Shown here piece by piece: positions 36,499 to 64,000 of a stretch of 64,000 nucleotides of DNA. Numbering within the stretch: the stretch's first letter is position 1; every line of letters starts with the position of its first letter. The notes under the pieces are model-generated. The model was not told the origin of the DNA. It made no database searches and was given only the letters and a program-made list of their open reading frames with translations. A program made the translations under genes and the position numbers. Source of the stretch: Dictyostelium discoideum. Taxonomy: Eukaryota. The stretch lies in the NCBI GenBank assembly GCA_000004695.1, contig CM000155.2:3392001-3456000 (forward strand). Direction: 5' to 3'.

Positions 36499-36535
<37 letters not shown>

Positions 36536-36721: not shown

Positions 36722-36820
<99 letters not shown>

Positions 36821-38736: not shown

Positions 38737-39597
38737 GCTTGTGATTTCCATTTGATTAGATTGTTTTTCATTTCTTGGATTAAAGTGTTGTATTTCGAAT
38801 TTTGAAAAACCGTACCGCGATCAAGAGGATACAAGATACACGTGAAAAGTAATTCATCCTTTTCTATCCTTAATCTCGGTCAATTTTAACCAATCTTTCA
38901 AAAAAATCACCAATCCACCACGATCTACAGATCTAACTTACCAAATCGCCGATTCAAAGGAATCCCATCGAGATGAATTCCTACGCAGACGCGGCTAAAA
39001 TGGCCAACCCCTCCACCCATATGGACGAGGCATCGGAGAACTTCATTAAGGAATTCTCCACAAAAACAGCAGAGATAAAGGAGACCTACCCCAAACTATC
39101 AATAGGCCTCAAAGACATCTCCAAATACTGCGAGACCATATTGAACATGACTGCGCTCTCAACCTACGAGAAGAACAACGGATTCTACCCAATTACACTC
39201 GAATTCCCCAAAATGGATCTCAAGGGGTTAGAAGAAATGAGAAAAACACTCTCAAACTACGATATCCCAATCGACAAGATATACATAGGCAAAGGAACTA
39301 GAAAAACGATCCACCTGATGATTAAAAACGAACAATCTCTCCTAAATATCATTAGAGATAGAAGCAAATTGGGAACCTTCATCACCTCCAGTAGAGACTT
39401 CCACGTCCTCACAGGAAGAGTAAGAATTCCCAGAGAAAAGGCAGGAATAGTGGACGCCCTCATCAAAACTGCCTTTGCAGAAGAAATACCCTATGCAATA
39501 TACAATACTATATACTCCACCGACCACCTCATAGTATTCGGTCTAATAGAATGCAAAATAGGCGATCAAATGAAATCTGGCCAACACNNNNNNNNNN
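38737..39597 (+). mobile_element. 5' portion of a tRNA-gene-targeted non-LTR retrotransposon (TRE3-like), truncated by an assembly gap
   Basis: Starts ~91 bp downstream of tRNA-Tyr, and TRE3-type elements integrate ~100 bp downstream of tRNA genes. It is locally GC-richer with non-host codon usage (CTC, ACC, GCC, CGC). The 14-15 bp direct repeat atatttagttttgt(t) flanks a poly(A)23 remnant just upstream (38654-38736). Confidence 0.5.
38973..39597 (+). CDS. Retroelement ORF1 (partial; runs into N-gap)
   Basis: 208-codon ORF MNSYADAAKMANPSTHMDEASENFIKEF... that stays open to the first N. Codon usage is unlike the surrounding genes. Confidence 0.45.
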
Positions 39598-39687
39598 NNN
39601 NNNNNNNNNNNNNNNNNNNNNNNNNNNNNNNNNNNNNNNNNNNNNNNNNNNNNNNNNNNNNNNNNNNNNNNNNNNNNNNNNNNNNNN
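39598..39687. other. Assembly gap (N run) followed by low-quality poly-T sequence to ~39870
   Basis: 90 consecutive N. Flanking homopolymer-heavy sequence. Confidence 0.95.
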
Positions 39688-39719
39688 TGGGGTTCCCCTT
39701 TAATTTTTTGAAAAAAATC

Positions 39720-39755
<36 letters not shown>

Positions 39756-39801
39756 TTTTAATAATTTTTTTTTAAATAAGGGGTTAAAAAAAAAAAATTT
39801 T

Positions 39802-39872
<71 letters not shown>

Positions 39873-39953
39873 TTTAGATTGTAAAACTAGGACCTTCCCT
39901 TTCCTGGTTTTGGTGCTGATTGAAAATATTTTTTACACAATTTGTCAAAAACT

Positions 39954-40036
39954 TGCAAGAGGCGAGATTCGAACTCGCGAACCGAATGGATGAGATCTTA
40001 AGTCACACGGATTTAACCAGACTTTCCTACCCTTGC
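39954..40036 (-). tRNA. tRNA-Leu (anticodon TAA), copy 1
   Basis: The minus strand reads GCAAGGGTAGGAAAGTCTGGTTAAATCCGTGTGACTTAAGATCTCATCCATTCGGTTCGCGAGTTCGAATCTCGCCTCTTGCA. Acceptor GCAAGGG/CTCTTGC (one G-T), anticodon loop CTTAAGA, T-arm GCGAG-TTCGAAT-CTCGC, long variable arm. Confidence 0.8.
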
Positions 40037-40680
40037 TTTGGATGAAGTTATCAAAAAATTTAGAGGTATATGTTCAATTTAAACTCAAGGAGAAGCAAAT
40101 AATAATTGCGTTATCCAATTCAAAAAAAAAAATGTTCAATTTAAATATAATAATAAGGAATATTGTTAATTTGAAAGATTTATTGGATTTTTTTTTTTAA
40201 AATCATTTAGTTAAAAAAATATATTTAATTTTATAAACAATTTTTGAAAATTAGTTCTTTAAAAAATTTTTTTTTATTATTCAATTCTGTTCAAAGAAAA
40301 AAATATTAATAATTCGAGTTTCATTTTTATTATAATTAATTTTTTTTTATTTTTATTTTTTTTTTTTTTTATTTTTTTATTTTTTTTTTTTTATTTTAAA
40401 TTTTTACAAAAATGGTATAAGGGAGAACTTTGGTTTTTTATTTATTTTTTAATTTCATTGAAAATTCTAAATTTATATGAAAAAAACAATTCTCTAAATC
40501 ATTGTTTTGAGACCTTTTGTAAATAATTATTTTTTAATCTTTTAAATTAATTTATTTTTTTTCAACACTGTTTAAAAAAATATAAAAAGTTTTTTTTTTT
40601 TTTAAAAAAAATTAATTAAAAAGAAATAATAATATTTTTAAAAAACATAGTAATAAATAAATTTTAAAATTTGATAAAAG

Positions 40681-41163
40681 ATGAAAGTCCATTGCCAATT
40701 ACCAACAAATAATAATAATAATAATGAAACAATAGATTTTGAAGTAGATCAAGATAATACTTTATTAGTAGATTTAAAACAAATGATATATAATAAAACT
40801 GGTACTCCAGTAAATAGACAATCTGTAAATATTTAAAATTTTTGGTATGTCAATAATTTTATTATATTTTTACAAACTAACCCAAACCTTTTTTAATATT
40901 TTAGATTGAATTGGAAAATAAAAAGTTACCACATAGATACGATAAAAAGTCAATATCAAAACTCCACATTAATGAATCATCAAATATAAGAGTTGTTTAT
41001 GTTTTGGAAGGTGGCTGTTGCGGTGTTGGTTGTGATATTTGTGTATGTATTTTCTTTTTTTAATAAACCCTTAAAATATATATTATTAACATATTTTTTA
41101 AAAATATTTGAAAAAAAAAAAAAATAGGGTTGTGGTGGAAGTTGTAGATGTTCAATTCAATAA
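40681..41163 (+). CDS. Ubiquitin-fold protein with Gly-Gly followed by Cys-rich tail and CaaX box (MUB/UBL3-like), copy 1, 3 exons
   Basis: Exons 40681..40824, 40905..41042 and 41128..41163 (donors GTAAAT and GTATGT, acceptors TTTTAG and AATAG). The protein is MKVHCQLPTNNNNNNETIDFEVDQDNTLLVDLKQMIYNKTGTPVNRQS|IELENKKLPHRYDKKSISKLHINESSNIRVVYVLEGGCCGVGCDIC|GCGGSCRCSIQ*. It aligns to ubiquitin ([32 protein letters not shown].../...LHLVLRLRGG). Confidence 0.65.
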
Positions 41164-41198
41164 ATTTCATAATGAGATCACCGGAGAAAAAACCTAAG

Positions 41199-42516: not shown

Positions 42517-42891
42517 TCATTTAATATATATATTTTTTTTTTTTATAAAATTTATTATTTTTTGTAACAACTGGTGGTCGGTATCATCAGTGTTAATTTT
42601 TCCTAATGATTTCTTTATTGTGTTGGTTATTGCTGCTGAAGTTATTGGTGTTGTAATGTTGGGTGATGATGGTGGTGTCGTATGATTATTTAATTGTTGT
42701 TGAGATTGTTGATTTATTAATTGAATGTGTTGTCGAAGAAGTTGATTTTGTTTATCTATTACCTGCTGCTGTTCCCTTATCTGACGTTGCTGTTCATTGA
42801 ATGTTGATACCTGTGGTTGTTGTTGTTGTTCCTCATTATCCTGTTGTTGCAATTCATCATTATCAATATCTTCGTTATTATTAGTTGACAT
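42517..42891 (-). CDS. Small Gln-rich protein of unknown function
   Basis: 124-aa ORF MSTNNNEDIDNDELQQQDNEEQQQQPQVSTFNEQQRQIREQQQVIDKQNQLLRQHIQLINQQ.... No recognisable domain. Confidence 0.35.
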   Translation of the reverse strand: MSTNNNEDIDNDELQQQDNEEQQQQPQVSTFNEQQRQIREQQQVIDKQNQLLRQHIQLINQQSQQQLNNHTTPPSSPNITTPITSAAITNTIKKSLGKINTDDTDHQLLQKIINFIKKKNIYIK

Positions 42892-43000
42892 TCTCTTAAA
42901 ATAAATTATTTAATAAAATTTAATTATTTATTTATTCTATTATTAAAGTAAAATGATTAATTATTTAAGAAATAAATGTACACAAAATTAATTAATGACC

Positions 43001-43134
43001 GTAGCCCTATCGTGTTTTTATTATTTGTATATATTTACTACTGAGGTTGAATTGGAAACCTAGTTTCCTTTTATAGTCCTTAGATTTGAGCGAACTCAAA
43101 TCTATTAACTACTCCAACCTCGGCCGATAGGGTT
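43001..43134. other. Compact nested inverted-repeat element (candidate structured ncRNA or miniature transposon)
   Basis: Outer stem tagccctatcg(43002-43012)/cgatagggtta(43124-43134). Inner stem gaggttg(43044-50)/caacctc(43113-19). Hairpin ggaaac-cta-gtttcc (43055-43069). Hairpin tagatttgag-cgaa-ctcaaatcta (43081-43104). Confidence 0.35.
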
Positions 43135-43308
43135 AGATCCAATTTAAACTACAATATTATATTATTTTAATTTAATTATTATTTTCTCTTCTAATTAAAT
43201 TATTTTTAAATTTATATTATTATTTTATATGGTGATTTTGTGTGTGGCATTTTTAATATCTGGTATCTAATATCTGTTATGAAAACTTTTGTGAAATTCA
43301 AATTAATT

Positions 43309-43339
<31 letters not shown>

Positions 43340-45159
43340 GAAAATTAAATTTAATTTAAAATTAATTAAATTTAATTACAACGGGAGAAAACCCCTTTAA
43401 ACAAAACAATAAAATAAATTATTATTATTTTCTGAATTGTATGTGTCATAACAAAATGTTGAAACAAAACTATATTCTAAATTATTATTATTTATTTTTG
43501 AATTATTGTTTAGTTGTGTTTAGTGAGTTTATTATATAAAATGAAACAATTTATTAAAATGAATTAAGTTAGTAATAATTAATATTGAATTATCAATTCA
43601 ATATTAATAGTTATTTTTAAATGTTCTGTTTAGAACATTTCATAAAATTAAATAAATATTAGTATTAACAAGATATTTTTTTGAGATCTTGTTACATTTT
43701 TTATCTTATTTTTTAGGGACTACTTATATTTTAATAAAATATGTTGAATATTATAATATTATTTTTTAAACATCTTATTATTAAAACTATAATTAATAAA
43801 ATTTATAACCTTCTGATATATTATCTCATTTTTTTAGTATTTATTATATTTTAAAAAAATATGTTAAAAATTATATATTGTTTCAATTTTTAATATATTT
43901 TATTATTTTTTTATTATTATTTATCTTATTTTTTAATATATTTTATTAAAAAATAATAAAGGTTACATTTTTTATAAATAATCTTATTTTTTTATAAAAT
44001 ATCCTATTTTCTAATAATTATTATAATTATTTTTTAAAAAAAAAAATAATCACGAATTAATAAAATTTAAAAATTCTAATATATTTTCTTATTAGTATTA
44101 ATTAAATTTTAATAAAAAATGCCATTTTTTTTTTATAATAAGTTTCATTTTTTTTATAAATTTTATAAATTTTATTTTTTTTATTTTTTTGTTATTATTA
44201 ATCTTATTTTGTAATAATTTTTATTAATTTATAAAATAGCATTATAAACTTTTATTAAAATTTAATTTAATTAATTATATTTTAACATTTTACTGGGTTT
44301 TTTTTTCCAGTGTAAAGCTTACGTTTAAAAAATTTTCATCGATTTCAATTTTAAATCTACAATCATTTAAGGAACAGTTTGATTTTAAATTATTTTTAAT
44401 TTCATCAATTAATTGATTATTGAAATGAATGATTTGATTATCGTATTCATTTAATTTATTTGAATTATCAATAATATTATTATTATTTAATATTATTAAT
44501 GATTGTTGATATTGTTTAATAATTTTAATTTTATCTCTATCAATAATAAAATCATCTCCATTATCATAAATTTGTTGATCTTAAAATTTTAAAATTTCAT
44601 TTAATTTGTCAATTGTTGTAATATTATCATTATCAATATCATTATCATTTTCATTTTCATTATCATTATCATTTTCATTTTAATTTTCATTTTCATTTTC
44701 ATTTTCATTTTCATTATTATTATTATTAATTATTGTTGAAAGTATTTCATTATCATTATTGATTGAAGAAGTTATAAATGTATTTATTAATGTATTGTTT
44801 TCAAATGTTTTCTCTAATTGTTTTTTAAAATCTAATTCTACGATTGAAACGATATCATGAATTTTTTTAATTTCTTTTTTTAATGAATTATTATCAAATT
44901 TTAATTGAATTTCATTGTATTTATCTTTTGATTGTTCTAATATTGTTTCATTGATTTTTGTTCTTTAAATTACTTTTTGATGTACATCATCTTTAAAATT
45001 ATTAATGAAAGAATATTTGAAGTTGATTCTAATGAATCAGTTCTATGACCATGATGTTCACCTTTAATTGAATTACATTGAATACAACATGGTATTAATT
45101 AACAATCCAAACAAAAGAATATTATATCTTTGTTTTGGTGAAGTGTACACTTTTTATTA

Positions 45160-45538
45160 TTGAATCCAAAATGTTGGTCAACTTCATCGAATAATCCATC
45201 ATCAATTTTAGAAAATTTAACATGATATAATTTATTTGGTGAATCAATTTGTTTTAATGTTTTATTAACAGAATTAGTATCAAAATTAAAATGGAAACCA
45301 ACTCCACCTGTTGAATTTTTAAAGAAATTAAAATCATTCACAAATGAACCAGCTTGTAATAGATTATATGTTGTTTATAAAATTTCAAAAAATAATATTT
45401 ATATACCTGGTAATCATAAATTAAACCCAACTTCAAAACAATTATTACAATCAAATAATACTTATGAAGGTTGGAAAATTACACAAGAAATGATTTTAAC
45501 TCATTTTTCTTTTACTTTTAAAAAAATTTTAAATTAAT
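45160..45538 (+). pseudogene. 3'-terminal remnant of a type I PKS gene (last ~125 codons) with a nonsense mutation
   Basis: [123 protein letters not shown] is collinear with the C-termini of both full PKS genes. TGC (Cys) has become TGA. Homology to the PKS genes starts abruptly at ~45160. Confidence 0.75.
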
Positions 45539-46258
45539 AAATTAAATATACACAATAACAATATAATTATTAAAAGAGTGAAAAATATTATAAAATAAAA
45601 TAAAATAAAATAAAATAAAATAAAATAAAAGAGGTAACCTTCGATATTTTCTGGAGTATGGAAAAAGTTTTGTAGTGATTCTGATTGGGTATTAAGTTTT
45701 TTATTTTTTTTATTTTTTTATTTTTTTTACGCAACTTTTTGTTTTTTAATCAACAAACCCTATCATTAGTCCCGCTACAATTTTTTTATTTTTAGATATT
45801 TTTTAAAAAGAAAACGAAAATCGAAAAAATCTCATTTTGATTTTTTTTATTTTTTTATTTTTTTCTTTTATTTTTTTTATATGTAAAAAGACCGGTTTTT
45901 TTAGAAAGTTTTGACCAGTGTTTGCAAAAAATCAAAAAGTATCATTATTTTTTTTTTTTTGTGTGTAATTGATTGGATAAAATCTTTTGTTTTTCTTGAA
46001 AAAGAAAAACTTTTTTTTTGGGTAAAGTGAACTTTTTTTTTTTTTTCAAAAATATTGCAAATTTTTGCTTATTTCTTTCATTTAACAAATAAAATTTTTC
46101 AATTTCTAAACTAACTAAAATCTTTTATTATCAAACATAGTTTTTTTATTAAAATAATTTTTTTATATGAAAATAATTTTTTTAATTGAGCATTATTATT
46201 CCAATATACTTGAAGTTATTGTTTTTTTTTATTTTATTTTATATTTTTTAATAATAAA

Positions 46259-46468
46259 ATGGAAAATCAAAATATTAAATATGGCGATAATGATGTTGCA
46301 ATTATTGGTATTGGTTTAAGATTACCAAATTCAATTAATAAGCCATTGGAATTATGGGAGGGTTTATTAGCTGGTTTTGACGGAATTGGTAATTATTATT
46401 TTTATTATTTTTTTTTATTTTCTTTTTTTTTTTTTAATTTTATTTTCATTTTTTTTTTCACCTTTCGC

Positions 46469-46503
<35 letters not shown>

Positions 46504-46671
46504 CCAATTTCAAAAAAAAACCACAGCAATGTATAAAATTAATACTCTAAATTACAATATGTTTTTATCATAGTTGAAACAACAAATAGATGGAGCGATT
46601 CATTTTCAGCAATGGATGAGATTTCAAGTAAATATGCAGGTTTAATTGTATGTATATTAACATAAAAATAA

Positions 46672-46702
<31 letters not shown>

Positions 46703-46774
46703 AATAAAATTACAAATAATAATAATAATAATAATAAAATTACAAATAATAATAATAATAATAATAAAATTACA

Positions 46775-46838
<64 letters not shown>

Positions 46839-47624
46839 TTACAAATAATAATAATAATATTAATAGTTAATCTATTTTTAGGATTTAGATGAATGGATGT
46901 CATTTGATCCTTTATTTTTTGGTATTATTCCAACAGAGGTACCATCAATTGATCCTCAACAAAGATTACTTTTGAAATGTACATGGGAAGGTGAGTATTA
47001 ATAATCGATATCATTAGTAGTTAATTTAGAATAATAAATCAAATATTTTACTAATTCTATTTACAAATATATTTAATCATTGATACAGCATTTGAAGATG
47101 CAAATATTGATCCATTTAAACTCAGAGGTACCAATACATCTGTATATGTAGGTGCAAGTTCATTAGATTATGCATCTATAAATGTTGACTTTGATGAAAC
47201 ACCAATGAACATTTTCAATTCAAATATGTCAGGTATTTCAAATAGAATATCATATTGTTATGACTTTAGAGGTACAAGGTAATTATTAGTAACATATTTT
47301 AAAAGTTTTTTTTTTTTTTTTAAAAGTTCAATAAACTAATAAGTATTATAATTATCTATGTTAAAAATAAAACTTTATTATAGTTTAACAATTGATACAG
47401 CATGTTCAAGTTCATTAAATGCAGTTCATCTTGGTTATAAATCAATTATAAATGGAGAATCAGATTATTCAATTGTTGGAGGTTGTAATTTCATTATGAG
47501 TCCACATACATCAAGATCATTTGAATCAATTAATGTAACAAGTAAAACTGGTAAAAGTAAAGCATTCGATCAAGATGCAAATGGATTTGTTCGTTCAGAA
47601 GTATGTAATAAATTATATTTACAT

Positions 47625-47681
<57 letters not shown>

Positions 47682-48026
47682 TTAATAACTAATTTTTAAA
47701 TATTAATAATAATTTATAAATAATAATTAAAAGGGAGTTGTATCAATCATTTTAAAGAAAATGTCAAAAGCAATTCAAGATGGTGATCAAATTTATTCAG
47801 TTATCAAAGGTACAAACAGTAATGTAGATGGTAATTTAAACAAAGGTAATTTCTTTGCACCATCAAAACAATCACAAGCAAATAATATTAAAAGTGCAAT
47901 GGAATCTTGTAATAAAGAAACTACCAATAGTACACCAATCGCTTTAAATGATATTGATTTCTTTGAATTACACGGTACAAGTACTCAAATTGGTGGTATG
48001 TAATCAACAACACTATTAAACTTTTT

Positions 48027-48073
<47 letters not shown>

Positions 48074-51000
48074 TTATATTGATTTTAAATTTTTAAAATA
48101 ATTATAGATCCAATCGAATGTGAAGGTGTATCAAGTGTATTTAAAGAATCAAGAGAAAAACCATTATTAATTGGATCAATTAAAGCAAACATTGGTCATT
48201 TAGAACCAGCAAGTGGTGTTGCAAGTTTAGCAAAAGTAGCATTAATGTTTAAACATCGTCAATTTGTAAAAAACATTAATTTCGATAAACCAAATCCAAA
48301 TATCAAATTTGATGAATGGAAAATTAAAGTCTGTACAGAGAATACACCATTCCCAAATAATAAGAAAGTATCAATTGCAATCAATTCCTTTGGTATTACA
48401 GGTAGCAATGCATGTTTAATTTTAACTGAATATATTAAACCAAAAACTACAACAACCACAACAGCTAACAATAATGGAAATCAAAAGTATTTAATACCAA
48501 TTTCAGCAAATTCAAAATCATCATTAGAATCATATAAAGAAAAATTAATTAATTCAAGTAAAGAATTTTCAGAAACTATTAATTTTAAAGATTTTGTTAA
48601 ATATCAATTAGATTCAAAAACTTTAAAATTAACTCAAAGATCAGTTATTATTGCAAGTAATTGGGAAGAAGCTGGAAGCACTCAATCAATTGTAACAACT
48701 AATACAAATAGATCAGGAAATATTATTAAAGATGCCAATAAGAATCCACAATTAGTATTCGTTTTTAGCGGTCAAGGTCCACAATGGTCAAAAATGTTCA
48801 CTCAACTTTATGATCAAGAACCAATTTTCAAACAAAAAACTGATCAAATTGATTCATTATTATCAAAACATTATGGTTATTCAATTTTAAATAAATTAAA
48901 TTCAATTAAAGATGATGATACAGTTACAATTAATGAACCAATTTTAGCACAACCATCAGTATTTATGATTCAAATGGCTTTGATTGAATTATATAAACAT
49001 TGGGGTATTTTAGCATCAATTTCAATAGGTCATTCACTTGGTGAAGTTTCAAGTGCAGTTTGTTCAGGTATGATTGATTTAGAAACTGGATGTTTTATCA
49101 TATATCATCGTTCAAGATTACAACAACAAACAGTTGGTAGTGGTAGAATGTTAGTAGCTTCATTAAATGAACAACAATTTAATCAAGAATTTCAACAAAA
49201 ATATCCATCAATTGAAATCTCTTGTTTTAATTCACCATTCTCAATCGTATTAGCAGGTAAAGAATCAGAATTACAAGAAATTTCAAATATCTTAAAAGAG
49301 AAAGAAACATTTTCAATATTTTTAAGTACACAATCATCATTCCATTCATCGTCACAAGAACCTATTAAAGATGAATTATTAAAACAATTAAAAGATATTA
49401 AATCAACCAAATCAAATATTCCAAATTTTTCAACTGTAACTTCCAATTTATTTAATGATAATGATGATGATGAAGTTGTTCAACAACCTGATGAAGCAAG
49501 TTCTCACAACAGCACAACAACTTTATTTGATTCAAATTATGTTTATGAAAATGTTAGAAAACCAGTACAATTCGAAAAAGCAATTAAAAATGTATTCAAT
49601 TACATTGAAAAAAAAGGTTTAGGTAGTTCAGTAATATTTTTAGAAATTTCAGCATCACCAGTATTAGGAAATTATATTAGAGAAATGATACCACAAGATT
49701 CAAACTATTTCTTTATTGAAGATCAAACTATATCAGTATTATCATCATTAAATAAAAAGAATAAAGATCAAGTATTAGAAATTCAAACAAGTATATCACA
49801 ATTATATTGTAAAGGTTATAATGTCAATTTTAATTGTTCAAATCAAACAAAATCATTGGACTTTAAAAACACCGGATATAAACAATTATCAGATGTTTTA
49901 TTCAAGTATTCATGGGATGATGAATCATATTGGTCTGTATCTCCATTAATTTCAAATTATATTAAAAATGGACCAGCAACTAATCATTTAGGTTATCGTA
50001 ATGAAAGACAACCATATCAATCATTCACATCATCGATTGATATTAAAAAAGAACCATTTGAATTTTTAAAAGGTCACTCAAGTAGAAATAGAGTAATTTA
50101 TCCAGGTTGTGGTTATATTGATAGTATATTAAAAGCATTCCCAGATCAAGATTTAACAATTCAATCAATGGAATATAAATCTGCAATTTTATTATCATCA
50201 TCAATGAAAACTTATTTATCAACAAATATCATACCAAGTGGTAAAAATGAATATCGTGTTTCATTCCATTACAAAGACAAAAAAACAAATAAATGGATTC
50301 TCTCATGTAGTGGTAGACTTTCAACTACAAAACACAATGATGAAGTCGTTAAAAAAGTTGACATTGAAAAATTAAAATCAAAATGTAATTTTGTAACCAT
50401 TCAAAAGAAAGAACTTTATGAAACAATTAAATATAAAGCACAATTAACATTAGAAGGTAAATTCCAAAGTATTGAAGAAGTTAGCTATGGTCATAATTGT
50501 TGTTTATCAAAAGTACCATTAACAACATTATCATCATATGATAATGAATCATTTTTAAATTTATGTGTAATTGATGCTGCTTTTCAACCACTTGGTGCTG
50601 TAAAAGAAAATCAAGAACCAATGGTATTTGCAAGTATTGAAAATTTAAAATTCTTTTCAAAAAATATACCAAAATCAGCAGAAGACAGAGAAAAATATAA
50701 ATTTGTTTATACATATACACAAGTAAAAGAAAAGAAATGTGGATCTTATTTCGTTTCAATTTTAACAATGCTTCAAGATGGTACAATACTATTCTTTTCA
50801 CCATTGGTAGTTTACACTCAATTAACACCATACAAAAATCAATACATAATTGAAAGTCCAAATGATAATTTATATAAAATTTGTTATCAATCAAAAGATT
50901 CAACATTACCACATCCATTATTATTAAAAGATAAATTTGATCAACCAAGATTTGAAACAACTGATAAACAATCTCAAGTAATAAAAAAAGCATTATCAAA

Positions 51001-54000
51001 TTGTTTATTTGCAATCTTTAAGAGAAATAATAATTTATTTACAAAAGTAGAAGTTAAATCACAATCAATTGATTATTTAATTGAAAAGTATTGTTTAATC
51101 ATTGATAATGATGATGATAATGATGGTATCGATGATAATAGTATATTGGTTAATGGTGGTGTAGCATCAATTGATGATATGGTATTAGCAAGTACAACAG
51201 GAAAAGAAACAACAATTGTAAATAATGGTAAAAGATCATTAGCAAAATTAATTTTCCAAATTTTAAAATCAAATGTTGATTTAATCGATTGGAATAATAT
51301 TGCAACATATACAAAAAATATTTCAAAACAACAATTAAATATTATTCAAGCAATTGGTAATTTAATTGTTACACCATTATCAGTAACAAATCAAGTAACA
51401 GAATCAGATTTAATTTCAAAAACTCAATTAGATATTATTAATAATAGAATGAAAATTAAACAATATGAATTAATTTCAAATACAATCGCAACAGATTTAA
51501 TTAAACCAATTATAAATAATAGTATTTTATTCAGAATTTTAGAAATTAATTCAGGATTTGGATATTTATCAGAAATGATAATTAATAAAATTAATCAATT
51601 ATTAATAGAATTTGAAAGTAGTTATGAAATTGAAATTGAATTTACATTCACATTAAATGGTACAAATCAAGATGATAATAAAGAAATTTCAAATTCAATT
51701 AAAGAAAAGTTGACAAATTTATTAATTTCAAAATCATCAATATCAATCATTTTTAAAGAATTAAATTTAAATGAATCATTTTTAGAACAAAAATTTAATC
51801 CATCTTATTATGATTTAATAGTTTTAACAAATTTATCAACAATTACAAATTTAAATGAATCAATTGAATTTATAAATTCAATTTTATATCCAAATGGTCA
51901 TTTAATTATAATTGATACAAAAAATCAATCAAACTTCCAAGATTATGAAATTTTTGAACAATTTTTAATTTTTGATAACTTTGGAGGTGGTATTGTAGAT
52001 GATAATATTGATTGGGTTAAAATATTTCAAGATAATAATATAAATAGGGTTGTTGCAACACCAAATATTAAACCACATGTAATTCAAGTTCAAAAATCAA
52101 AATTATATGAGAAAGTAATGGGTACACTTGATGATATTACAGGGCCATATGATCAAATCATTATAATTGGTTATCAGTTACAAGGTACAGATGAAGATAA
52201 TTTCCAAAGCCCGATTATGGATATTAATAAACAAGGTACAGATATTTATAGAATTAAAACTATTGAAGAATTTGAAAAACATTGTTCGACAATACCACCA
52301 ACAGATAAATCAATTTTATTCTTTATTTCAGCAATGAATAATTTATCATTAGAAAATTATAAACAAGTTAATTTTGATTATATTAAAATCAATCAATATT
52401 TATTAGCAAATAAATTAGGATCTCTATTTATTTTAGCAACTAAAAGTGCATTAAAAGAATCAACCAATGCATTAGCAGCATCATTAATTGGTAGTTTTAG
52501 ATATTTTTCAGAGTTTTCAAATATTTTAAATTTATATTCATTCGATTTTGGTGAGGATGTATATACCCTTTCAAAAGAAATATCATTAAAATGGTTAAAT
52601 ATGGCAATTGATTTACTAGATCCAAATAAACATATTCAAAGAGAATATATTTTTAGAAATGGTAATGAAACTTGGTTTGAAAGAATTGGTAAAATTAAAA
52701 GAGTTAAATCAAAATATCAATCAAAATCATATTTAGATGATAAAGAAGATTCATTAGTCGCAAGATTAGATCAAAATTTAGAATATCAATTAGAGGCAAA
52801 ACAAAGCAATTTAAAAGAAAATGAAATTGAAGTTCAAGTTGTAGCAACAGGTATTAATTTTAAAGATAGTTTAATTTTTAGAAATCTTGTACCACCAGTT
52901 TTAGCAAATCATGAAGGTGATTTTAGTAAACCTGAATTTGGATTCGAATGTTCTGGTATCGTTTCAAGAATTGGTAGTAAAGTTAAAAAGTTTAAAGTTG
53001 GTGATTCAGTTTTAGGTATAAGTTGGAAATCAACATCATCTCATGCCATCAATTATCAAGATGCATTTGTTTTAAAACCAGATAACATTAGTTTTGTAGA
53101 AGCAGCTTCAATACCAATAGTATATTGTACTTCATTCTATTCATTATTTTATTCTGGTAATTTAAGTATTAAAAATAATGAATCAGTATTAATTCATCAA
53201 GCAAGTGGTGGTATTGGTTTAGCATGTTTAAATATTTTAAAATCATGTGGATTTAAATCAAAATTATATGTAACAGTTGGTTCAAAAGAAAAAGAAGATT
53301 ATCTAAGAGAAACCTATGGTGATTTTATAACTGGAATTTATTCATCAAGAAATACAGATTTCCTTGAAAATATTAAAACTGATCTTTCAAATAAAAATGA
53401 CAACAACAACAATAACAACAACAACAACAATGACAACAAAGAAAGTAACATCAAAGAACTTCTTGATAATGATGATGATGAAATTTTACCATTTATTCAT
53501 AAAAAAGGTGTTGATTTAATTATAAATACATTACCATTTGAATTTTTAGATACAAATTTCCTTTTACTTGGTCAAGGTGGTAGAATTGTAGATTTATCAG
53601 TTACTCATTTAAATAATAATGATACAACTGATTTTAGTAAATTCAAATGGTTCATTGGTTATAGTACAGTTGAAATATTTTATAATGGATTTGAAAAATC
53701 AAAACATATATTACAATTAATAACAGATATGATTAAAAATAAAGAATTACCATTAATACCAATTAAAGAGTATCCAATTAATCAAATTAAAGATGCAATC
53801 GACTTTATTGGTCAAAGAAAACATATTGGTAAAATTGTTATAAATCATAAATTAGGTTTAAGAGATGGTTGTTCAAATTTAGTACAAGATACAATTAAAA
53901 GTTTACAAAATCATTTAAAGGATAATTATTTAGTAGCTTCTCCAGATTTTAAATTCATGGGTGATAGTTTAGGTAAAACTATTTTATTAACAGGTCAAAC

Positions 54001-56362
54001 TGGTTTATCATTATCAATCGCTCAAGCTTGCTTATTAAATAATTATCAAGATTTAGAAGGTATAATTGTAATTTCAAAATCACCAATTAAACATGAATTA
54101 CAATATCTCATTTCATTAGCTAAATACCTTTCACGTAAAACTAGAGTTCATTTTAAACAAGCAGATTGTTCTAAATTTGATGAAATGAGAAAGGTAATAT
54201 CAGAAATTTATGAAAAAGATGATCCAAAATTATCACCAGTAGAATCAATATTTCATAATGCATTCGTACCAGTTATGTCAGAACCACAAGATATTGATAT
54301 GAAACATATTGATGATGCATATGATGCTAAAACAACTGGTGCAATGAATTTGTATATGTTAATGAGTATGTATGACTGGAAATTGAAAAACTTTTTTTTT
54401 AGTTCTTCCATTACTTCAGTTTCAGGTAGTTCACGTCAAGCAGGTTATTGTGGTGCAAATCTTGTATTAGAATCAATGGCTAAAGTTATTCAATCTCAAG
54501 GTATAAGATGTTCAACAATTTGTTGGGGTATTATTGGTGATACTGGTTATGTTTCACGTAATGAATCGGTTGCTAAATTTTTAAACGGTCTAGGTAATGC
54601 CCCAATGCCTTTGAATATGGTTTTAGGTTCATTAGATTTATTATTACAACAACCAACCCTATCAACAGATACTACAATCATTGCATCATTTGATTTTAAT
54701 AATTTACCAAAACTATCAAGAGATGGAAGTAATAATATTAGTTATAAATTTGATTACTTTACAAATCCAATTCAATCAAATCAAAATAATTGTTCAAGTG
54801 ATGATCTTTCAATTAGAGAACAAATTCTTGCAAAATTTTCAGAGTTTTTATCAGTCGATGATCAATCTAAAATTAATTTAGATATAAAATTATTAGATTA
54901 TGGTGCAGATTCAATGGTAATTGTAGAGTTAAAGAATTATTTAGATAAAACATATACACCAAATATTTTATCTATACAACAACTTCAAAATATTACAATT
55001 AATCAATTAATTCAATCAGTAACAGATGCAATGAATAAATTAAATGGTAATGAAAATAAATCAATTAAAAAATCAAATAAATTAGTACAACAAAAACAAA
55101 TCGATTGGGTAAAAGAAATTAAATTAGATTCATCTATAAAACCAACTGATGAAATGATTAAATTATTTAAACAACTACAACAACAAGCATCAACAACAAC
55201 AAGTAATACAGTATTTTTAACAGGTTCAAGTGGTTTTATTGGAATTTATATTCTATTTTATTTAATTAAATCAGTTAATTGTAAAATTGTATATTGTTTA
55301 ATTAGAAGAAAAACAATTGAAGAAGCAACAACATTTTTAATTGAATTTTTAAAAGTTCATCAATTATATAATCAATTAACAACAGATGAAATTAATAAAA
55401 TCAAACCAGTATTAGGTGATTATACATTAGATTCATTTGGACTTTCAGTTGATCAATATACAAATATTTCAAATAATGTAGATTTAATTATAAATAGTGC
55501 TGCAAGTGTAAACTATCAAATGGGTTATGAAGATTCAAAAGTTGAAAGTGTAGAAGGTGTACTTCAATGTTTAAGATTTTCATGTCATAATAAATTAAAG
55601 AAATTATTTCAAGTTAGCACTCTTGGCATTTATTCAGATGATAAAAGAGATAATTTAGATGATTATACATTCGCTCAAATTGATCCAAAAATTATTCAAT
55701 CTAAAAATTCAATTATCAATGGTTATTTACAAGGTAAAATCGTATCAGAATATCATATTAAAGAAGCTGCAAATAGAGGTATACCTTGTTGTATCATTAG
55801 ATTACCTTTTATTGGTCCAAATCCAAATACTGGTGTTGGTAGAGATTTAGATTTATTTCAAACATTATTTCAATCATGTTATGCAATGTCAACATATCCA
55901 AAACAAGAATCAGGTCTTCAATTTTATGCAACACCAGTTACTTGGGCAGCTCAAAACTTATCATTCATTTCATTGAATCCAAAATGTTGGTCAACTTCAT
56001 CAAATCATCCATCATCAATTTCAGAAAATTTAACATGCTACAGTTTATTTGGTGAATCAATTTGTTTTAATGTTTTATTAACAGAATTAGCAACACAATT
56101 AAAATGGAAACCAACTTCATCTGGTGAATTTTTAAAGAAATTGAGATCATTCCCAAATGAACCATCTTGTAAAAAACTTCATATTGTCTTAAAAAATACA
56201 AAAAATTTATTACTCAATGTTTATATACCTGGTAATTATAAATTAAATCCAACTTTAAAACAATTACTACAATCAAATAATACTTATGAAGGTTGGAAAA
56301 TTACACCAGAAATGATTTTAACTCATTTATCTTTTATCTTTAAAAAAAAATTAAATAAATAA
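46259..56362 (+). CDS. Type I iterative polyketide synthase (KS-AT-DH-cMT-ER-KR-ACP-thioester reductase), 7 exons, ~3080 aa
   Basis: Exons 46259..46388, 46574..46647, 46882..46990, 47089..47278, 47384..47600, 47734..47995 and 48108..56362. All junctions are GT/AG and phase-consistent. Motifs: KS DTACSSS / HGTSTQIGD / [10 protein letters not shown]; AT GHSLGE; c[12 protein letters not shown]; [14 protein letters not shown]; [13 protein letters not shown]; [11 protein letters not shown]; [12 protein letters not shown] and YLQGK. Confidence 0.9.
46670..46860. repeat. Minisatellite inside PKS intron 2: (aat)n-aaaattacaaat units
   Basis: About 5 tandem ~27-33-bp units, visible directly. Confidence 0.8.
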
Positions 56363-57814: not shown

Positions 57815-60800
57815 TTATTTGTAATTTATAAATTTAATTTTTTTAAAGGTAAAAGATAAATGAGTTAAAATCATTTCTGGTGTAATTTTCCAACCTTTAT
57901 AAGTGTTATTTGATTGTAATAATTGTTTTAAAGTTGGATTTAATTTATAATTACCAGGTATATAAATATTGAGTAATAAATTTTTTGAATTTTTCAAAAC
58001 AACATGAAGTTTATTACAAGATGGTTCATTTGGGAATGATTTTAATTTCTTTAAAAATTCACCGGGTGGAGTTGGTTTCCATTTTAATTGTGATGCTAAT
58101 TCTGTTAATAAAACATTAAAACAAATTGATTCACCAAATAAATTATAACATGTTAAATTTTCTGAAATTGATGATGGATTATTTGATGAAGTTGACCAAC
58201 ATTTTGGATTCATTGAAATGAATGATAAGTTTTGAGCTACCCAAGTAACTGGTGTTGAATATAATTGAAGACCTGATTCTTGTTTTGGATATGTTGACAT
58301 TGCATAACATGATTGTAATAATGTTTGGAAAAAATCTGAATCATTACCAACACCAGTACTTGGATTTGGACCAATAAAAGGTAATCTAATGATACAACAT
58401 GGTATACCTCTATTTGCAGCTTCTTTAATATGATATTCTGATACGATTTTACCTTGTAAATAACCATTGATAATTGAATTTTTAGATTGAATAATTTTTG
58501 GATCAATTTGAGCGAATGTATAATCATCTAAATTATCTCTTTTATCATCTGAATAAACACCAAGAGTGCTAACTTGAACAAATTTCTTTAATTTATTATG
58601 ACATGAAAATCTTAAACATTGAAGTACACCTTCTACACTTTCAACTTTTGAATCTTCATAATCCATTAGAAAACTTACACTTGCAGCACTATTTATAATT
58701 AAATCTACATTATTTGAAAGATTTGTATACTGATCAACTGAAAGTCCAAATGAATCTAATGTATAATCACCTAATACTGGTTTGATTTTATTAATTTCAT
58801 CTGTTGTTAATTGATTATATAATTGATGAACTTTTAAAAATTCAATTAAAAATGTTGTTGCTTCTTCAATTGTTTTTCTTCTAATTAAACAATATACAAT
58901 TTTACAATTAACTGATTTAATTAAATAAAATAGAATATAAATTCCAATAAAACCACTTGAACCTGTTAAAAATACTGTATTACTAGTTGTTGTAGTTGGT
59001 GATGCTAGTTGTTGTTGTAATTGTTTAAATAATTTAATCATTTCATCAGTTGGTTTTATAGATGAATCTAATTTAATTTCTTTTACCCAATCGATTTGTT
59101 TTTGTTGTACTAATTTATTTGATTTTTTAATTGATTTATTTTCATTACCATTTAATTTATTCATTGCATCTGTTACTGATTGAATTAATTGATTAATTGT
59201 AACATTTTGAAGTTGTTGTATAGATAAAATATTTGGTGTATATGTTTTATCTAAATAATTCTTTAACTCTACAATTACCATTGAATCTGCACCATAATCT
59301 AATAATTTTATATCTAAATTAATTTTAGATTGATCATCAACTGATAAAAACTCTGAAAATTTTGCAAGAATTTCTTCTCTAATTGAAAGATCATCACTTG
59401 AACAATTATTTTGATTTGATTGAATTGGATTTGTAAAGTAATCAAATTTATAATAAAGATTATTACTTCCATTTGTTGATAGTTTTGGTAAATTATTAAA
59501 ATCAAATGATGCAACGATTGTAGTATCTGTTGATAGGGTTGGTTGTTGTAATAATAAATCTAATGAACCTAAAACCATATTTGAAGGCATTGAAATATTA
59601 CCTAGACCATGTACATATTTTGAAACTGATTCATTACGTGAAACATAACCAATATCACCAATAGAACCCCAACAAATTGTTGAACATCTTATACCTTGAG
59701 ATTGAATAGTTTTAGCTATTGATTCTAATACAAGATTTGCACCACAATAACCTGCTTGACGCGAACTACCTGAAACTGAAGCAACTGAAGAACTAAAAAA
59801 AAAGTTTTTTAATTTCCAACCATTTAAAATCGCTAGCAAATATAGATTCATTGCACCAGTTGTTTTAGCATCATATGCATCATCAATATGTTTCATACCA
59901 ATATCTTGTGGTTCTGACATAACTGGTACGAATGCATTATGAAATATTGATTCTACTGGTGATAAATTAGGATCATCTTTTTCATAAATTTCTGATATTG
60001 CTTTGCTTATTTCATCAAATTTAGAACAATCTGCTTGTTTAAAATGAACTCTAGTTTTACGTGAAAGGTATTTAGCAAATGAAATGAGATATTGTAATTC
60101 ATTTCTAATTGGTGATTTTGAAATTACAATTATACCTTCTAAATCTTGATAATTATTTAATAAACTGATTTGAATGATTGATAATGATAAACCAGTTTGA
60201 CCTGTTAATAAAATAGTTTTACCTAAACTATCACCCATGAATTTAAAATCTGGAGAAGCTACTAAATAATTATCCTTTAAATGATTTTGTAAACTTTTAA
60301 TTGTATCTTGTACTAAATTTGAACAACCATCTCTTAAACCTACTTTATGATTTATAACAATTTTACCAATATGTTTTCTTTGACCGATAAATTCAATTGC
60401 ATCTTTAATTTGATTAATTGGATACTCTTTAATTGGTATTAATGGTAATTCTTTATTTTTAATCATATCTATTATTAATTGTAATATATGTTTTGATTTT
60501 TCAAATCCATTATAAAATATTTCAACTGTACTATAACCAATAAACCATTTGAATTTACTAAAATCAGTTGTATCATTATTATTTAAATGATTAACTGATA
60601 AATCTACAATTCTACCACCTTGACCAAGTAAAAGGAAATTTGTATCTAAAAATTCAAATGGTAATGTATTTATAATTAAATCAACACCTTTTTTATGAAT
60701 AAATGGTAAAATTTGATCAACATCATCAAAACTTTCATTAATGGTGTTATTTTCTTTGATTTCGTTGTTGTTGTTATTTATTTTTGAAAGATCAGTTTTA

Positions 60801-63800
60801 ATATTTTCAAGGAAATCTGTATTTCTTGATGAATAAATTCCAGTTATAAAATCACCATAGGTTTCTCTTAGATAATCTTCTTTTTCTTTTGAACCAACTG
60901 TTACATATAATTTTGATTTAAATCCACATGATTTTAAAATATTTAAACATGCTAAACCAATACCACCACTTGCTTGATGAATTAATACTGATTCATTATT
61001 TTCAATTTTTAAATTACCAGAATAAAATAATGAATAGAATGAAGTACAATATACTAATGGTATTGAAGCTGCTTCTACAAAACTAATATTATCTGGTTTT
61101 AAAACAAATGCATCTTGATAATTGATGGCATGAGATGATGTTGATTTCCAACTTATACCTAAAACTGAATCACCAACTTTAAATTTTGTAACTTTGCTAC
61201 CAATTCTTGAAACGATACCAGAACATTCAATTCCAAATTCAGGTTTACTATAATCACCATCATGATTTGCCAAAACTGGTGGTACAAGATTTCTAAAAAT
61301 TAAACTATCTTTAAAATTAATACCAGTTGCCACAACTTGAACTTCAATTTCATTTTCTTTTAAATTGCTTTGTTTTGCCTCTAATTGATACTCTAAATTT
61401 TGATTTAATCTTGCGACTAATGAATCTTCTTTATCATCTAAATATGATTTTGATTGATATTTTGATTTAACTCTTTTAATTTTACCAATTCTTTCAAACC
61501 AAGTTTCATTACCATTTCTAAAAATATATTCTCTTTGAATATGTTTATTTGGATCTAGTAAATCAATTGCCATATTCATCCATTTAAATGGTGATCCACT
61601 AGCAATGGTAAATACCATTTCACCAAAATCGAATGAATATAAATTTAAAATATTTGAAAACTCTGAAAAGTATCTAAAACTACCAATTAATGATGCTGCT
61701 AATGCATTGGTTGATTCTTTTAATGCACTTCTAGTTGCTAAAATAAATGGACATCTTAATTTATTTGCTAATAAATATTGATTGATTTTAATATAATCAA
61801 AATTAACTTGTTTATAATCACCCAATGATAAATTATTCATTGCTGAAATAAAAAATAAAATTGATTTATCTGTTGGTGGTATTGTTAAACAATGTTTTTC
61901 AAATTCTTCAATAGTTTTAATTCTATAAATATCTGTACCTTGTTTATTAATATCCATAATTGGATTTTGGAAAAGATCTTCATTTGTATCTTGCATTTGA
62001 TCACCAATTATAATAATTTGATCATATGGTCCTGTTATATCATCAAGTGTACTCATTACCTTATCATATAATTTTGATTTTTGAACTTGAATTACATGTG
62101 GTTGAATATTTGGTGTTACAATAGCATTATTTAAATTATTATTTTGAAATATTTGATTCCAATCAATATTATCATCTACAATACCACCTCCAAAGTTATC
62201 AAAAATTAAAAATTGTTCAAAAATTTCATAATCTTGAAAGTTTGATTGATTTTTTGTATCAATTATAATTAAATGACCATTTGGATATAAAATTGAATTT
62301 ATAAATTCAATTGATTCATTTAAATTTGTAATTGTTGATAAATTTGTTAAAACTATTAAATCATAATAAGATGGATTAAATTTTTGTTCTAAAAATGATT
62401 CATTTAAATTTAATTCTTTAAAAATGATTGATATTGATGATTTTGAAATTAATAAATTTGTTAACTTTTCTTTAATTGAATTTGAAATTTCTTTATTATC
62501 ATCTTGATTTGTACCATTTAATGTGAATGTAAATTCAATTTCAATTTCATAACTATTTTCAAATTCTATTAATAATTGATTAATTTTATTAATTATCATT
62601 TCTGATAAATATCCAAATCCTGAATTAATTTCTAAAATTCTGAATAAAATACTATTATTTATAATTGGTTTAATTAAATCTGTTGCGATTGTATTTGAAA
62701 TTAATTCATATTGTTTAATTTTCATTCTATTATTAATAATATCTAATTGAGTTTTTGAAATTAAATCTGATTCTGTTACTTGATTTGTTACTGATAATGG
62801 TGTAACAATTAAATTATCAATTGCTTGAATAATATTTAATTGTTGTTTTGAACTTGTATTTGTAAATGTTGCAATATTATCCCAATCGATTAAATCAACA
62901 TTTGATTTTAAAATTTGGAAAATTAATTTGGCTAATACTCTTTTACCATTATTTAAAATTGTTGTTTCTTTTCCTGCTGTACTTGCTAATACCATATCAT
63001 CGATTGATGCTACACCACCATTAACTAATATACTATTATCATCGATACCATCATTATCATCATCATTATCAATGATTAAACAATACTTTTCAATTAAATA
63101 ATCAATTGATTGTGATTTAATTTCTTCTTTTGTAAATAAATTATTATTTCTCTTAAAGATTGCGAATAAACAATTTGATAATGCTTTTCTAATTATTTGT
63201 GATTGCTCATCAGTTGTTTCAAAATTTAATTGATCAAATTTATCTTTTAATATTAATGGTGATGGTAATGTTGAATCTTTTGATTGATAACAAATTTTAT
63301 ATAAATTATCATTTGGACTTTCAATTATGTATTGATTTTTATATGGTGTTAATTGAGTGTAAACTACCAATGGCGAAAAGAATAGTATTGTACCATCTTG
63401 AAGCATTGTTAAAATTGAAACGAAATAAGATCCACATTTCTTTTCTTTTATTTGTGTATATGTATAAACAAATTTATGTTTTTCTCTATCTTCTGCTGAT
63501 TTTGGTATATTTTTTGAAAAGAATTTTAAATTTTCAATACTTGAAAATAACATTGGCTCTTTATTCTCTTTTACAGCACAGAATGGTTGAAAAGCAGAAT
63601 CAATTACACATAAATTTAAAAATGATTGATTATCATATGATGATAATGTTGTTAATGGTACTTTTGCTAAACAACAATTATGACCATAGCTAACTTCTTC
63701 AATACTTTGGAATTTACCTTCAAATGTAAATTGTGCTTTATATTTAATTGTTTCATAAAGTTCTTTCTTTTGAATGGTTACAAAATTAGTTTTTGCTTTT

Positions 63801-64000
63801 AATTTTTCAATATCAAATTTTCTAACGACTTCATCATTGTGTTTTGTAATTGAAAATTTACCACTACATGAGAGTGACCATTTATTTGTTTTTTTATCCT
63901 TATAATGGAATGAAACACGATATTCATTTTTACCACTTGGTGTGATATTTGTTGATAAATAAGTTTTCATTGATGGTAATAATAAAACTGCAGATTTAAA
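57815..64000 (-). CDS. Type I PKS, near-identical paralogue of the 46259..56362 gene, convergent orientation; 5' part lies beyond the window
   Basis: The reading frame is open from the window edge (…[41 protein letters not shown]…) to a stop at 57815. Same domain order (DH-cMT-ER-KR-ACP-R) and long identical stretches to the plus-strand PKS. Confidence 0.9.
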   Translation of the reverse strand, partial: FKSAVLLLPSMKTYLSTNITPSGKNEYRVSFHYKDKKTNKWSLSCSGKFSITKHNDEVVRKFDIEKLKAKTNFVTIQKKELYETIKYKAQFTFEGKFQSIEEVSYGHNCCLAKVPLTTLSSYDNQSFLNLCVIDSAFQPFCAVKENKEPMLFSSIENLKFFSKNIPKSAEDREKHKFVYTYTQIKEKKCGSYFVSILTMLQDGTILFFSPLVVYTQLTPYKNQYIIESPNDNLYKICYQSKDSTLPSPLILKDKFDQLNFETTDEQSQIIRKALSNCLFAIFKRNNNLFTKEEIKSQSIDYLIEKYCLIIDNDDDNDGIDDNSILVNGGVASIDDMVLASTAGKETTILNNGKRVLAKLIFQILKSNVDLIDWDNIATFTNTSSKQQLNIIQAIDNLIVTPLSVTNQVTESDLISKTQLDIINNRMKIKQYELISNTIATDLIKPIINNSILFRILEINSGFGYLSEMIINKINQLLIEFENSYEIEIEFTFTLNGTNQDDNKEISNSIKEKLTNLLISKSSISIIFKELNLNESFLEQKFNPSYYDLIVLTNLSTITNLNESIEFINSILYPNGHLIIIDTKNQSNFQDYEIFEQFLIFDNFGGGIVDDNIDWNQIFQNNNLNNAIVTPNIQPHVIQVQKSKLYDKVMSTLDDITGPYDQIIIIGDQMQDTNEDLFQNPIMDINKQGTDIYRIKTIEEFEKHCLTIPPTDKSILFFISAMNNLSLGDYKQVNFDYIKINQYLLANKLRCPFILATRSALKESTNALAASLIGSFRYFSEFSNILNLYSFDFGEMVFTIASGSPFKWMNMAIDLLDPNKHIQREYIFRNGNETWFERIGKIKRVKSKYQSKSYLDDKEDSLVARLNQNLEYQLEAKQSNLKENEIEVQVVATGINFKDSLIFRNLVPPVLANHDGDYSKPEFGIECSGIVSRIGSKVTKFKVGDSVLGISWKSTSSHAINYQDAFVLKPDNISFVEAASIPLVYCTSFYSLFYSGNLKIENNESVLIHQASGGIGLACLNILKSCGFKSKLYVTVGSKEKEDYLRETYGDFITGIYSSRNTDFLENIKTDLSKINNNNNEIKENNTINESFDDVDQILPFIHKKGVDLIINTLPFEFLDTNFLLLGQGGRIVDLSVNHLNNNDTTDFSKFKWFIGYSTVEIFYNGFEKSKHILQLIIDMIKNKELPLIPIKEYPINQIKDAIEFIGQRKHIGKIVINHKVGLRDGCSNLVQDTIKSLQNHLKDNYLVASPDFKFMGDSLGKTILLTGQTGLSLSIIQISLLNNYQDLEGIIVISKSPIRNELQYLISFAKYLSRKTRVHFKQADCSKFDEISKAISEIYEKDDPNLSPVESIFHNAFVPVMSEPQDIGMKHIDDAYDAKTTGAMNLYLLAILNGWKLKNFFFSSSVASVSGSSRQAGYCGANLVLESIAKTIQSQGIRCSTICWGSIGDIGYVSRNESVSKYVHGLGNISMPSNMVLGSLDLLLQQPTLSTDTTIVASFDFNNLPKLSTNGSNNLYYKFDYFTNPIQSNQNNCSSDDLSIREEILAKFSEFLSVDDQSKINLDIKLLDYGADSMVIVELKNYLDKTYTPNILSIQQLQNVTINQLIQSVTDAMNKLNGNENKSIKKSNKLVQQKQIDWVKEIKLDSSIKPTDEMIKLFKQLQQQLASPTTTTSNTVFLTGSSGFIGIYILFYLIKSVNCKIVYCLIRRKTIEEATTFLIEFLKVHQLYNQLTTDEINKIKPVLGDYTLDSFGLSVDQYTNLSNNVDLIINSAASVSFLMDYEDSKVESVEGVLQCLRFSCHNKLKKFVQVSTLGVYSDDKRDNLDDYTFAQIDPKIIQSKNSIINGYLQGKIVSEYHIKEAANRGIPCCIIRLPFIGPNPSTGVGNDSDFFQTLLQSCYAMSTYPKQESGLQLYSTPVTWVAQNLSFISMNPKCWSTSSNNPSSISENLTCYNLFGESICFNVLLTELASQLKWKPTPPGEFLKKLKSFPNEPSCNKLHVVLKNSKNLLLNIYIPGNYKLNPTLKQLLQSNNTYKGWKITPEMILTHLSFTFKKIKFINYK

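Follow-up and report, generated by a model that had tools for sequence, protein, structure and literature searches.

The ~ 410-bp fragment that lies upstream of PKS+ in the analysed window (a stretch of 64,000 nucleotides of Dictyostelium discoideum DNA) is probably a non-functional, unprocessed pseudogene piece of a type I iterative PKS, belonging to the local subfamily formed by PKS+, PKS-, PKS_A and PKS_B. Its abrupt 5' edge is a head-to-head fusion to a second dead gene relic, which comes from the B-box zinc finger / FNIP-repeat family. The fragment is homologous to its paralogs in coding register and, at the same time, is incomplete and carries disabling lesions, as detailed below. The coordinates of both relics, of their junction and of the neighbouring PKS genes are given in Table 1.

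Table 1. Position, strand and supporting evidence of the features described (window coordinates).
Feature	Position	Strand	Evidence
PKS tail relic (fragment), last 125 codons and stop; codon frame from 45160	45159..45538	+	BLASTN; three- and four-way alignments; position relative to NAD_binding_4 and MxaA
Premature TGA, codon 22 (TGC in PKS+, TGT in PKS-, both Cys)	45223..45225	+	Alignments; antisense translations
In-frame deletion of 9 bp (3 codons) relative to all three full-length tails	45393..45394	+	Alignments
3' flank homologous to the PKS+ 3' flank (to 56393)	45539..45571	+	BLASTN; alignment; self-comparison
Fusion junction, PKS tail (+) / B-box relic (-)	45158..45161		Alignment to both parents; paralog limits; tblastn
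B-box zinc finger / FNIP-repeat family gene relic	44310..45158	-	Pfam zf-B_box; homologs with PF00643 and PF05725; tblastn; limits of DNA homology
80-codon antisense ORF	45099..45341	-	ORF list; antisense translations
PKS+ (intact downstream PKS)	46259..56362	+	ORFs; Pfam; 3057-aa gene call at the orthologous locus L006
PKS- (inverted paralog, cut by the window end)	57815..64000	-	ORFs; self-comparison; alignment

When the region 44900-45700 was compared with the window by BLASTN, 45161-45553 matched 58212-57813 on the minus strand, i.e. the 3' end of PKS-, with 90.3% identity over 402 columns (E 5e-159), and 45159-45571 matched 55972-56393 on the plus strand, i.e. the 3' end of PKS+, with 86.1% identity including the 3' flank (E 1e-142). 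A stringent self-comparison of the window repeated these two tail matches and returned no further PKS pieces. The reading frame of the fragment is intact over 125 codons and its TAA stop is found at the homologous place. The original prediction had described ~ 380 bp reproducing the last ~ 125 codons of the PKS, with an abrupt start and an end at 45538; the copy and the abrupt start (45159-45161) hold, but the end does not, as homology continues for ~ 33 nt past the stop to ~ 45571, within ~ 10 bp of the end of the PKS repeat unit. PKS sequence is absent upstream of the position that corresponds to PKS+ codon 2577, and no in-frame ATG precedes the stop. The start codon of PKS+ follows 721 bp after the fragment stop, both being in the same orientation as predicted.

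The Cys-to-stop mutation and the many substitutions that had been noticed in the sequence are likewise found in the alignments: codon 22 is a TGA where both PKS genes of the window encode Cys, and 18-22 substitutions are private to the fragment, which differs from every PKS tail by 7-10%. Besides these, the alignments reveal the in-frame deletion of three codons, which was absent from the original prediction.

PKS+ displays a KS-AT-DH-ER-KR-ACP-R domain order by Pfam, with the KS in an N-terminal exon and several 5' introns, and its 2705-aa last exon carries the KS-extension, AT, DH, ER, KR, ACP and a terminal NAD_binding_4 (residues 2325-2570). The PKS+ tail aligns with solved terminal thioester reductases, namely MxaA (4u7w, E 3.5e-28) and the R domain of a type I PKS (8v1x, E 1.9e-21), in agreement with the reductase label given in the original prediction. 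The fragment starts at about residue 300 of the 420 residues of MxaA, and the MxaA alignment of the PKS tail ends at the first residues of the fragment. By this position, the fragment is the C-terminal subdomain of the R domain (terminal thioester reductase) and lies downstream of its Pfam-defined Rossmann part. Pfam gave no match on the fragment alone, because the copied part lies beyond NAD_binding_4. A protein search with the translated fragment was equally negative, and the intact R domain retrieved a single fragmentary PKS tail (P0001), from a word-indexed database in which the PKS clusters of the window seem not to be exposed. Furthermore, the fragment amounts to 4% of a PKS gene, it has neither a complete Rossmann/NAD(P)-binding fold nor the catalytic part required of a functional R domain, and it is interrupted at codon 22. 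It cannot encode an enzyme.

PKS- is arranged tail-to-tail with PKS+ and shows 94.7% identity to it over 6.2 kb in the window self-comparison, the inverted repeat unit ending at 56404/57797. The window has a G+C content of 21.5%, with the AT-rich introns and homopolymer tracts of Dictyostelium-type DNA, and its syntenic segments are 99.3-99.9% identical to the D. discoideum assembly GCA_054883475.1 (JBTAPE010000001.1, 3.6 Mb).

Several other features of the window were observed. The spacer between the convergent PKS tails (56544-57722) is a direct duplicate of 39945-41178, of ~ 1.2 kb and 94.5-95% identity, and this duplicated block contains, besides a tRNA-Leu(UAA), a small ubiquitin-like gene of two exons with a predicted product of 100 aa and a Cys-rich C-terminal tail (...GGCCGVGCDICVCIFFF). 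Two tandem O-methyltransferase paralogs (32368-33363 and 34309-35418; Pfam Methyltransf_2 and Dimerisation; 76% DNA identity) are located ~ 11-14 kb upstream of the PKS pair and may serve for tailoring in a PKS gene cluster. Exact-product look-ups with the window ORFs 42517-42891, 34309-35418 and 29824-31215 returned no gene, in all probability since the actual gene models contain introns. At 36059-37093 a 344-aa ORF, which is also a 344-aa gene call in GCA_054883475.1, shows compressed and partial matches to the N-terminal, middle and C-terminal domains of GH38 alpha-mannosidase, and may be a truncated mannosidase relic. Ten isolated single-N positions are scattered over 27135-27652, where the sequence is intergenic or of low complexity; the window comes from a draft-quality part of the assembly. 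Finally, a self-inverted match of ~ 350 bp and 72% identity at 21143-21488, directly upstream of a 1441-aa ORF (21755-26080), is probably low-complexity AT-rich DNA.

We then consider which PKS copy the fragment resembles. Over the coding part (45160-45538), the identity of the fragment is lowest with PKS+ (89.7%), intermediate with PKS_A (91.0%), a gene of the neighbouring paralogous cluster L001 of GCA_054883475.1, and highest with PKS- (92.3-93.4%), while the three full-length tails are 94.3-96.1% identical among themselves. As expected from the original prediction, the similarity to both PKS 3' ends of the window is thus highly significant, and PKS- is nominally the closest of these tails, closer than the adjacent PKS+. 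A four-tail comparison was made with the fragment, PKS+, PKS- and PKS_A, the tail of PKS_B, which may be a closer relative, being left out. It assigns 18 private changes to the fragment, 11 to PKS+, 3 to PKS- and 5 to PKS_A, the fragment branch being the longest. Among the seven parsimony-informative sites, five group the fragment with PKS-, one with PKS+ and one with PKS_A, a support for the pairing with PKS- that is weak and not significant by rough calculation. The higher identity to PKS- is largely due to the fact that the PKS- branch is the shortest and the private branch of PKS+ is long. The fragment is best treated as a separate lineage, which on the tail comparison would be older or faster-evolving. 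In terms of codon position, 14 of the 18 private changes of the fragment and 8 of the 11 of PKS+ fall at positions 1 or 2; these counts are small, and the pattern of the fragment fits neutral drift but does not amount to a statistical demonstration of relaxed constraint.

The sequence immediately left of the fragment accounts for its abrupt edge. Once the internal stop is replaced, the minus strand left of 45160 matches Pfam zf-B_box with 33.4 bits (cut-off 24.1), with profile position 2 falling exactly at the junction. In a database search the stitched translation of this relic matches Dictyostelium B-box and FNIP-repeat proteins of 250-434 aa with 70-89% identity, including DDB_G0289799, DDB_G0289777, P0002, P0003 and P0013, all of which begin M-x12-D-NNKKC, and the homologs P0002-P0014 carry PF00643 plus PF05725. 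By tblastn, the relic spans only residues ~ 13-270 of the 427-aa P0003, starting at residue 13/14. It is interrupted by four in-frame stops, of which the first is the TAA within the B-box (45099-45101), and by a single frameshift at about 45000-45012. The intact paralogs L010 and L011 match at the DNA level from 45161, which is their codon 13, down to 44310/44314 and no further, and the relic is therefore truncated at both ends. The promoter and the first ~ 12 codons are absent from it, so that of what a functional B-box/FNIP gene requires the start codon, an uninterrupted B-box and the FNIP repeats are all lacking.

The junction was mapped by aligning the window both with the PKS tails in antisense and with a B-box 5' end that is unbroken (L006 20500-20700), L006 being a locus of GCA_054883475.1. 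It reads ...GGATTCA[AT]AATAAAAAGTGT..., and at most 2 nt (AT) are common to both parents. Such a junction could in principle also arise from a short PKS copy inserted into an intact B-box gene, either as a 5'-truncated retrocopy of a PKS mRNA made by non-LTR machinery or as a ~ 410-bp template-switch patch. Indeed, LINE-mediated retrocopies are typically truncated at the 5' side but complete at the 3' side, and the fragment has this shape; moreover, non-LTR retroelements with an APE+RT ORF are found a few kb away, and an A-rich (AAAAT)n tract is present at ~ 45586-45632. The parental PKS segment is intronless. A retrocopy would be expected to end in poly(A), to be flanked by a target-site duplication and to be followed by the resumed host gene. 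However, no poly(A) is directly attached ~ 33 nt past the stop and there is no evident target-site duplication. Above all, when three paralog 5' ends were aligned to 45540-46300, the B-box 5' end was absent after the fragment, local alignment scores being equal to the shuffle means. An insertion into the B-box gene, which we consider very improbable, was rejected on this ground, as the host gene does not resume. The missing B-box 5' end was not found elsewhere in the window either, which fits a loss of this end and not an interruption.

Another decayed B-box copy, with a zinc-finger Cys-to-Ser change and stops, is observed at L006 20566-20825 directly beyond the retroelement; extrapolating with the length of the PKS+ gene, it would lie ~ 0.7 kb from the PKS_B 3' end. 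It seems that this PKS subfamily tends to have B-box/FNIP relics in its vicinity.

The junction lies inside the 80-codon antisense ORF. Of its codons, 61 run antisense to the PKS relic and the remaining 19 are those with which the B-box relic begins; it ends at the B-box TAA. Read in this antisense frame, PKS+, PKS- and PKS_A all give NKL*HVKF where the fragment gives NKLYHVKF, and each of the three PKS tails is closed by 1-2 stops, the second one being in PKS+. A single T>A at 45225 both creates the sense TGA and turns the antisense TAA into TAT, and it is only because of this loss of the antisense TAA that the ORF is open. From these translations, the ORF is a chance chimera of two relics and no credible gene. 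The suspicion that it is an artefact is thus upheld, but its attribution to the PKS remnant alone is not, since 19 codons are those of the B-box relic.

An automatic annotation of GCA_054883475.1 derived a 'hypothetical protein' of 188 aa, ACTFIT_003072 (P0011), from precisely this stretch, which raises the question of a real chimeric or de novo protein encoded by the antisense strand. The ORF is open over 80 codons, the gene model exists in another assembly and the sequence is identical in two strains. However, the two strains are ~ 99.5-99.9% identical everywhere, and the identity of the fragment between them is therefore uninformative on selection. Furthermore, the model needs several introns that exactly skip the B-box TAA, the frameshift and another stop, and these introns remove the zinc-binding core, so that the B-box is destroyed; no Pfam family is on record for ACTFIT_003072. 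The parental B-box promoter and start are gone, and the ORF owes its opening to one substitution in a frame that is closed in the three PKS tails. Taken together, these observations make a real protein extremely unlikely; ACTFIT_003072 is spurious and ought to be marked as pseudogenic. Little more can be expected of a functional RNA: leftward transcription from a bidirectionally active PKS+ upstream region would give an RNA antisense to the tails of at least three expressed PKS paralogs (90-93%), which could feed RNAi co-regulation of the subfamily, or would yield the 188-aa ACTFIT_003072 as a de novo gene that arose from antisense pseudogene sequence, and we see this as a highly doubtful scenario, the sequence data neither excluding nor supporting transcription.

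A second D. discoideum assembly discriminates between a real relic and an artefact of assembly. The locus L006 of GCA_054883475.1, which carries P0011, matches the window from 55511 to 40132 with 99.90% identity (3 mismatches and 4 gaps in 15.4 kb), and the window segment 44300-45760 is found in the reverse complement of L006 with zero differences. The relic, its lesions and the junction are real, because they are reproduced identically in an independent assembly. The window does contain a 100-N gap and single Ns, and the PKS genes form a repetitive family, so that PKS-tail reads might have been mis-placed. However, a fragment that diverges from each tail to the extent given above, with private substitutions and a private deletion, and that is copied base for base with both flanks in the other assembly, refutes this explanation. 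The original prediction of a pseudogenised orphan PKS 3' end is in this way sustained by the disabling lesions, by the longest private branch of the four tails and by the identity in an independent assembly.

The 100-N gap itself (39588-39687) was also looked at. Both flanks (38565-39945) recur with > 99% identity in GCA_054883475.1, where they are inverted relative to each other and separated by ~ 73 kb; the interval holds the PKS_A/PKS_B cluster as well as the genes of window 1-39 kb. The flanks are retroelement sequence by tRNA genes (tRNA-Tyr 38565-38647, tRNA-Leu-UAA 39954-40036), and in L006 the position of the gap is filled by a non-LTR element APE+RT ORF. This discrepancy corresponds either to a TE-flanked ~ 90-kb inversion polymorphism or to a scaffold mis-join in one assembly.

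The locus L001 of the same assembly was considered as the orthologous locus and rejected, as it is only 84-97% identical versus 99.6% for syntenic single-copy DNA; the ortholog is L006. L001 is a paralogous cluster with two tandem PKS genes, PKS_A being upstream of PKS_B. PKS_A is 93% identical to PKS+, and PKS_B is 97.3% identical to PKS+ and shares ~ 1 kb of upstream region with it at 91%. In PKS_A, a frameshift that separates the ACP from the R domain (L001 ~ 9950-10000; ...PNIL...) results in two gene calls, of 2620 aa and 443 aa. This frameshift is either a true lesion that turns the gene into a pseudogene or an error in sequencing a homopolymer.

Between PKS_A and PKS_B, at L001 11708-12252, lies a decayed R-domain relic equivalent to PKS+ 55487-56033. 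More broadly, in L001 11366-12252 a sequence similar to PKS intron 1 precedes 545 bp of R domain that contain a frameshift and stops, and the relic is annotated in GCA_054883475.1 as a 104-aa NAD_binding_4 'gene'. Like the fragment, it is an orphan and decayed terminal-reductase piece, in the orientation of the flanking PKS and with B-box relic pieces nearby. In contrast to the fragment, which is equivalent to PKS+ 55972-56393, it covers another part of the tail, with an overlap of only 61 nt at 86%, and its abrupt end lies elsewhere. This overlap and the right order and orientation of the two pieces in the other strain led us to consider them as halves of one ancestral relic, which was rejected, as the L001 relic has a 3-bp deletion in common with PKS_A that is absent from the fragment. 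On this comparison, the L001 relic is independent of the fragment, and the subfamily counts at least four full-length PKS paralogs and two such tail relics within about 100 kb. L001 also has a B-box relic piece with the same 44310 boundary and an inverted copy of window 42604-43467, both between PKS_A and PKS_B. The repeated rearrangement that the original prediction had proposed for this locus is well supported by these pieces together with the R-domain relic. Furthermore, B-box and neighbouring pieces are found in scrambled order upstream of PKS_B, and the history of the region therefore comprises more than one event.

With regard to the origin of the fragment, we favour a whole third PKS copy over the boundary of a duplicated block. 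In the proposed ancestral state, a B-box gene on the minus strand would have stood head-to-head with a third PKS on the plus strand, itself in tandem upstream of PKS+ in the manner of PKS_A and PKS_B. One deletion of ~ 10 kb would then have extended from the 5' end of the B-box gene across the intergenic region common to both genes and into the third PKS, of which ~ 95% would have been lost, the ends being joined with little or no microhomology, as in end-joining. Both stumps would have been left promoterless and would have drifted neutrally thereafter, the fragment being inert and the antisense ORF a by-product. The 3' limit of the fragment (45571, equivalent to 56393) falls at the end of the full PKS unit, as is expected for a former complete unit, and the proposed ancestral layout is shown by L001, where two tandem PKS genes of the same strand have a decayed R-domain piece between them. 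That both truncations, of the PKS and of the B-box gene, go back to one event is suggested by parsimony, and we give it about an even chance.

Alternatively, the fragment could be the boundary of a duplicated block running from the equivalent of PKS+ 55972 through the intergenic and promoter region into PKS+, copied by segmental duplication or transposition and either placed within the B-box 5' end or joined to it, in which case no complete third PKS would ever have existed. Such a boundary would give the same single junction. Segmental copies indeed abound here, for example the spacer 56544-57722 recurring at 39945-41178 (95%) and the inverted PKS+/PKS- pair, and in L001 the sequence upstream of PKS_B repeats pieces of the B-box relic, of the neighbouring region and of the PKS promoter. 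However, the interval 45572-45745, from the fragment to the PKS+ promoter homology, matches no known PKS downstream flank, the 3' homology ends where a full-length unit ends, as would rather be expected had the unit once been complete, and the displaced B-box 5' end is absent from the window. None of these three points is decisive, and we regard a duplication boundary as unlikely.

Compared with known systems, the favoured remnant of a third PKS has close relatives. D. discoideum is reported to possess ~ 40 PKS genes and five stop-interrupted pseudogenes (PMC9618038), and its PKS family has diversified by lineage- or species-specific expansion (PMC3188802). Like the stop-interrupted pseudogenes, the fragment belongs to the PKS family and carries a premature stop, its paralogs being 93-97% identical; in contrast to them, it is not full-length but a ~ 410-bp stump fused to the relic of another gene. 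The parental PKS tail is a member of the group of R domains represented by MxaA (4u7w) and 8v1x, whereas the fragment retains the C-terminal subdomain only, stop-interrupted and devoid of the Rossmann/NAD(P)-binding and catalytic part. The relic next to it is a recognisable B-box at 70-89% identity over residues 13-270 of the Dictyostelium B-box and FNIP family; unlike the intact proteins, it has no start codon or FNIP repeats and bears four stops and one frameshift.

Together, the fragment and the B-box relic are an ordinary scar that the turnover of gene families has left in a Dictyostelium PKS cluster, a short orphan tail beside its paralogs being the expected leftover of such turnover. The significance of the pair lies mainly in annotation hygiene and in local genome history: it explains the spurious 'hypothetical protein' ACTFIT_003072 of a recent D. 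discoideum assembly, and it adds a further scar to a PKS subfamily that turns over by duplication, inversion and deletion. If an outgroup keeps an intact third PKS, the locus would represent a cleanly dated case of PKS gene death by end-joining deletion.
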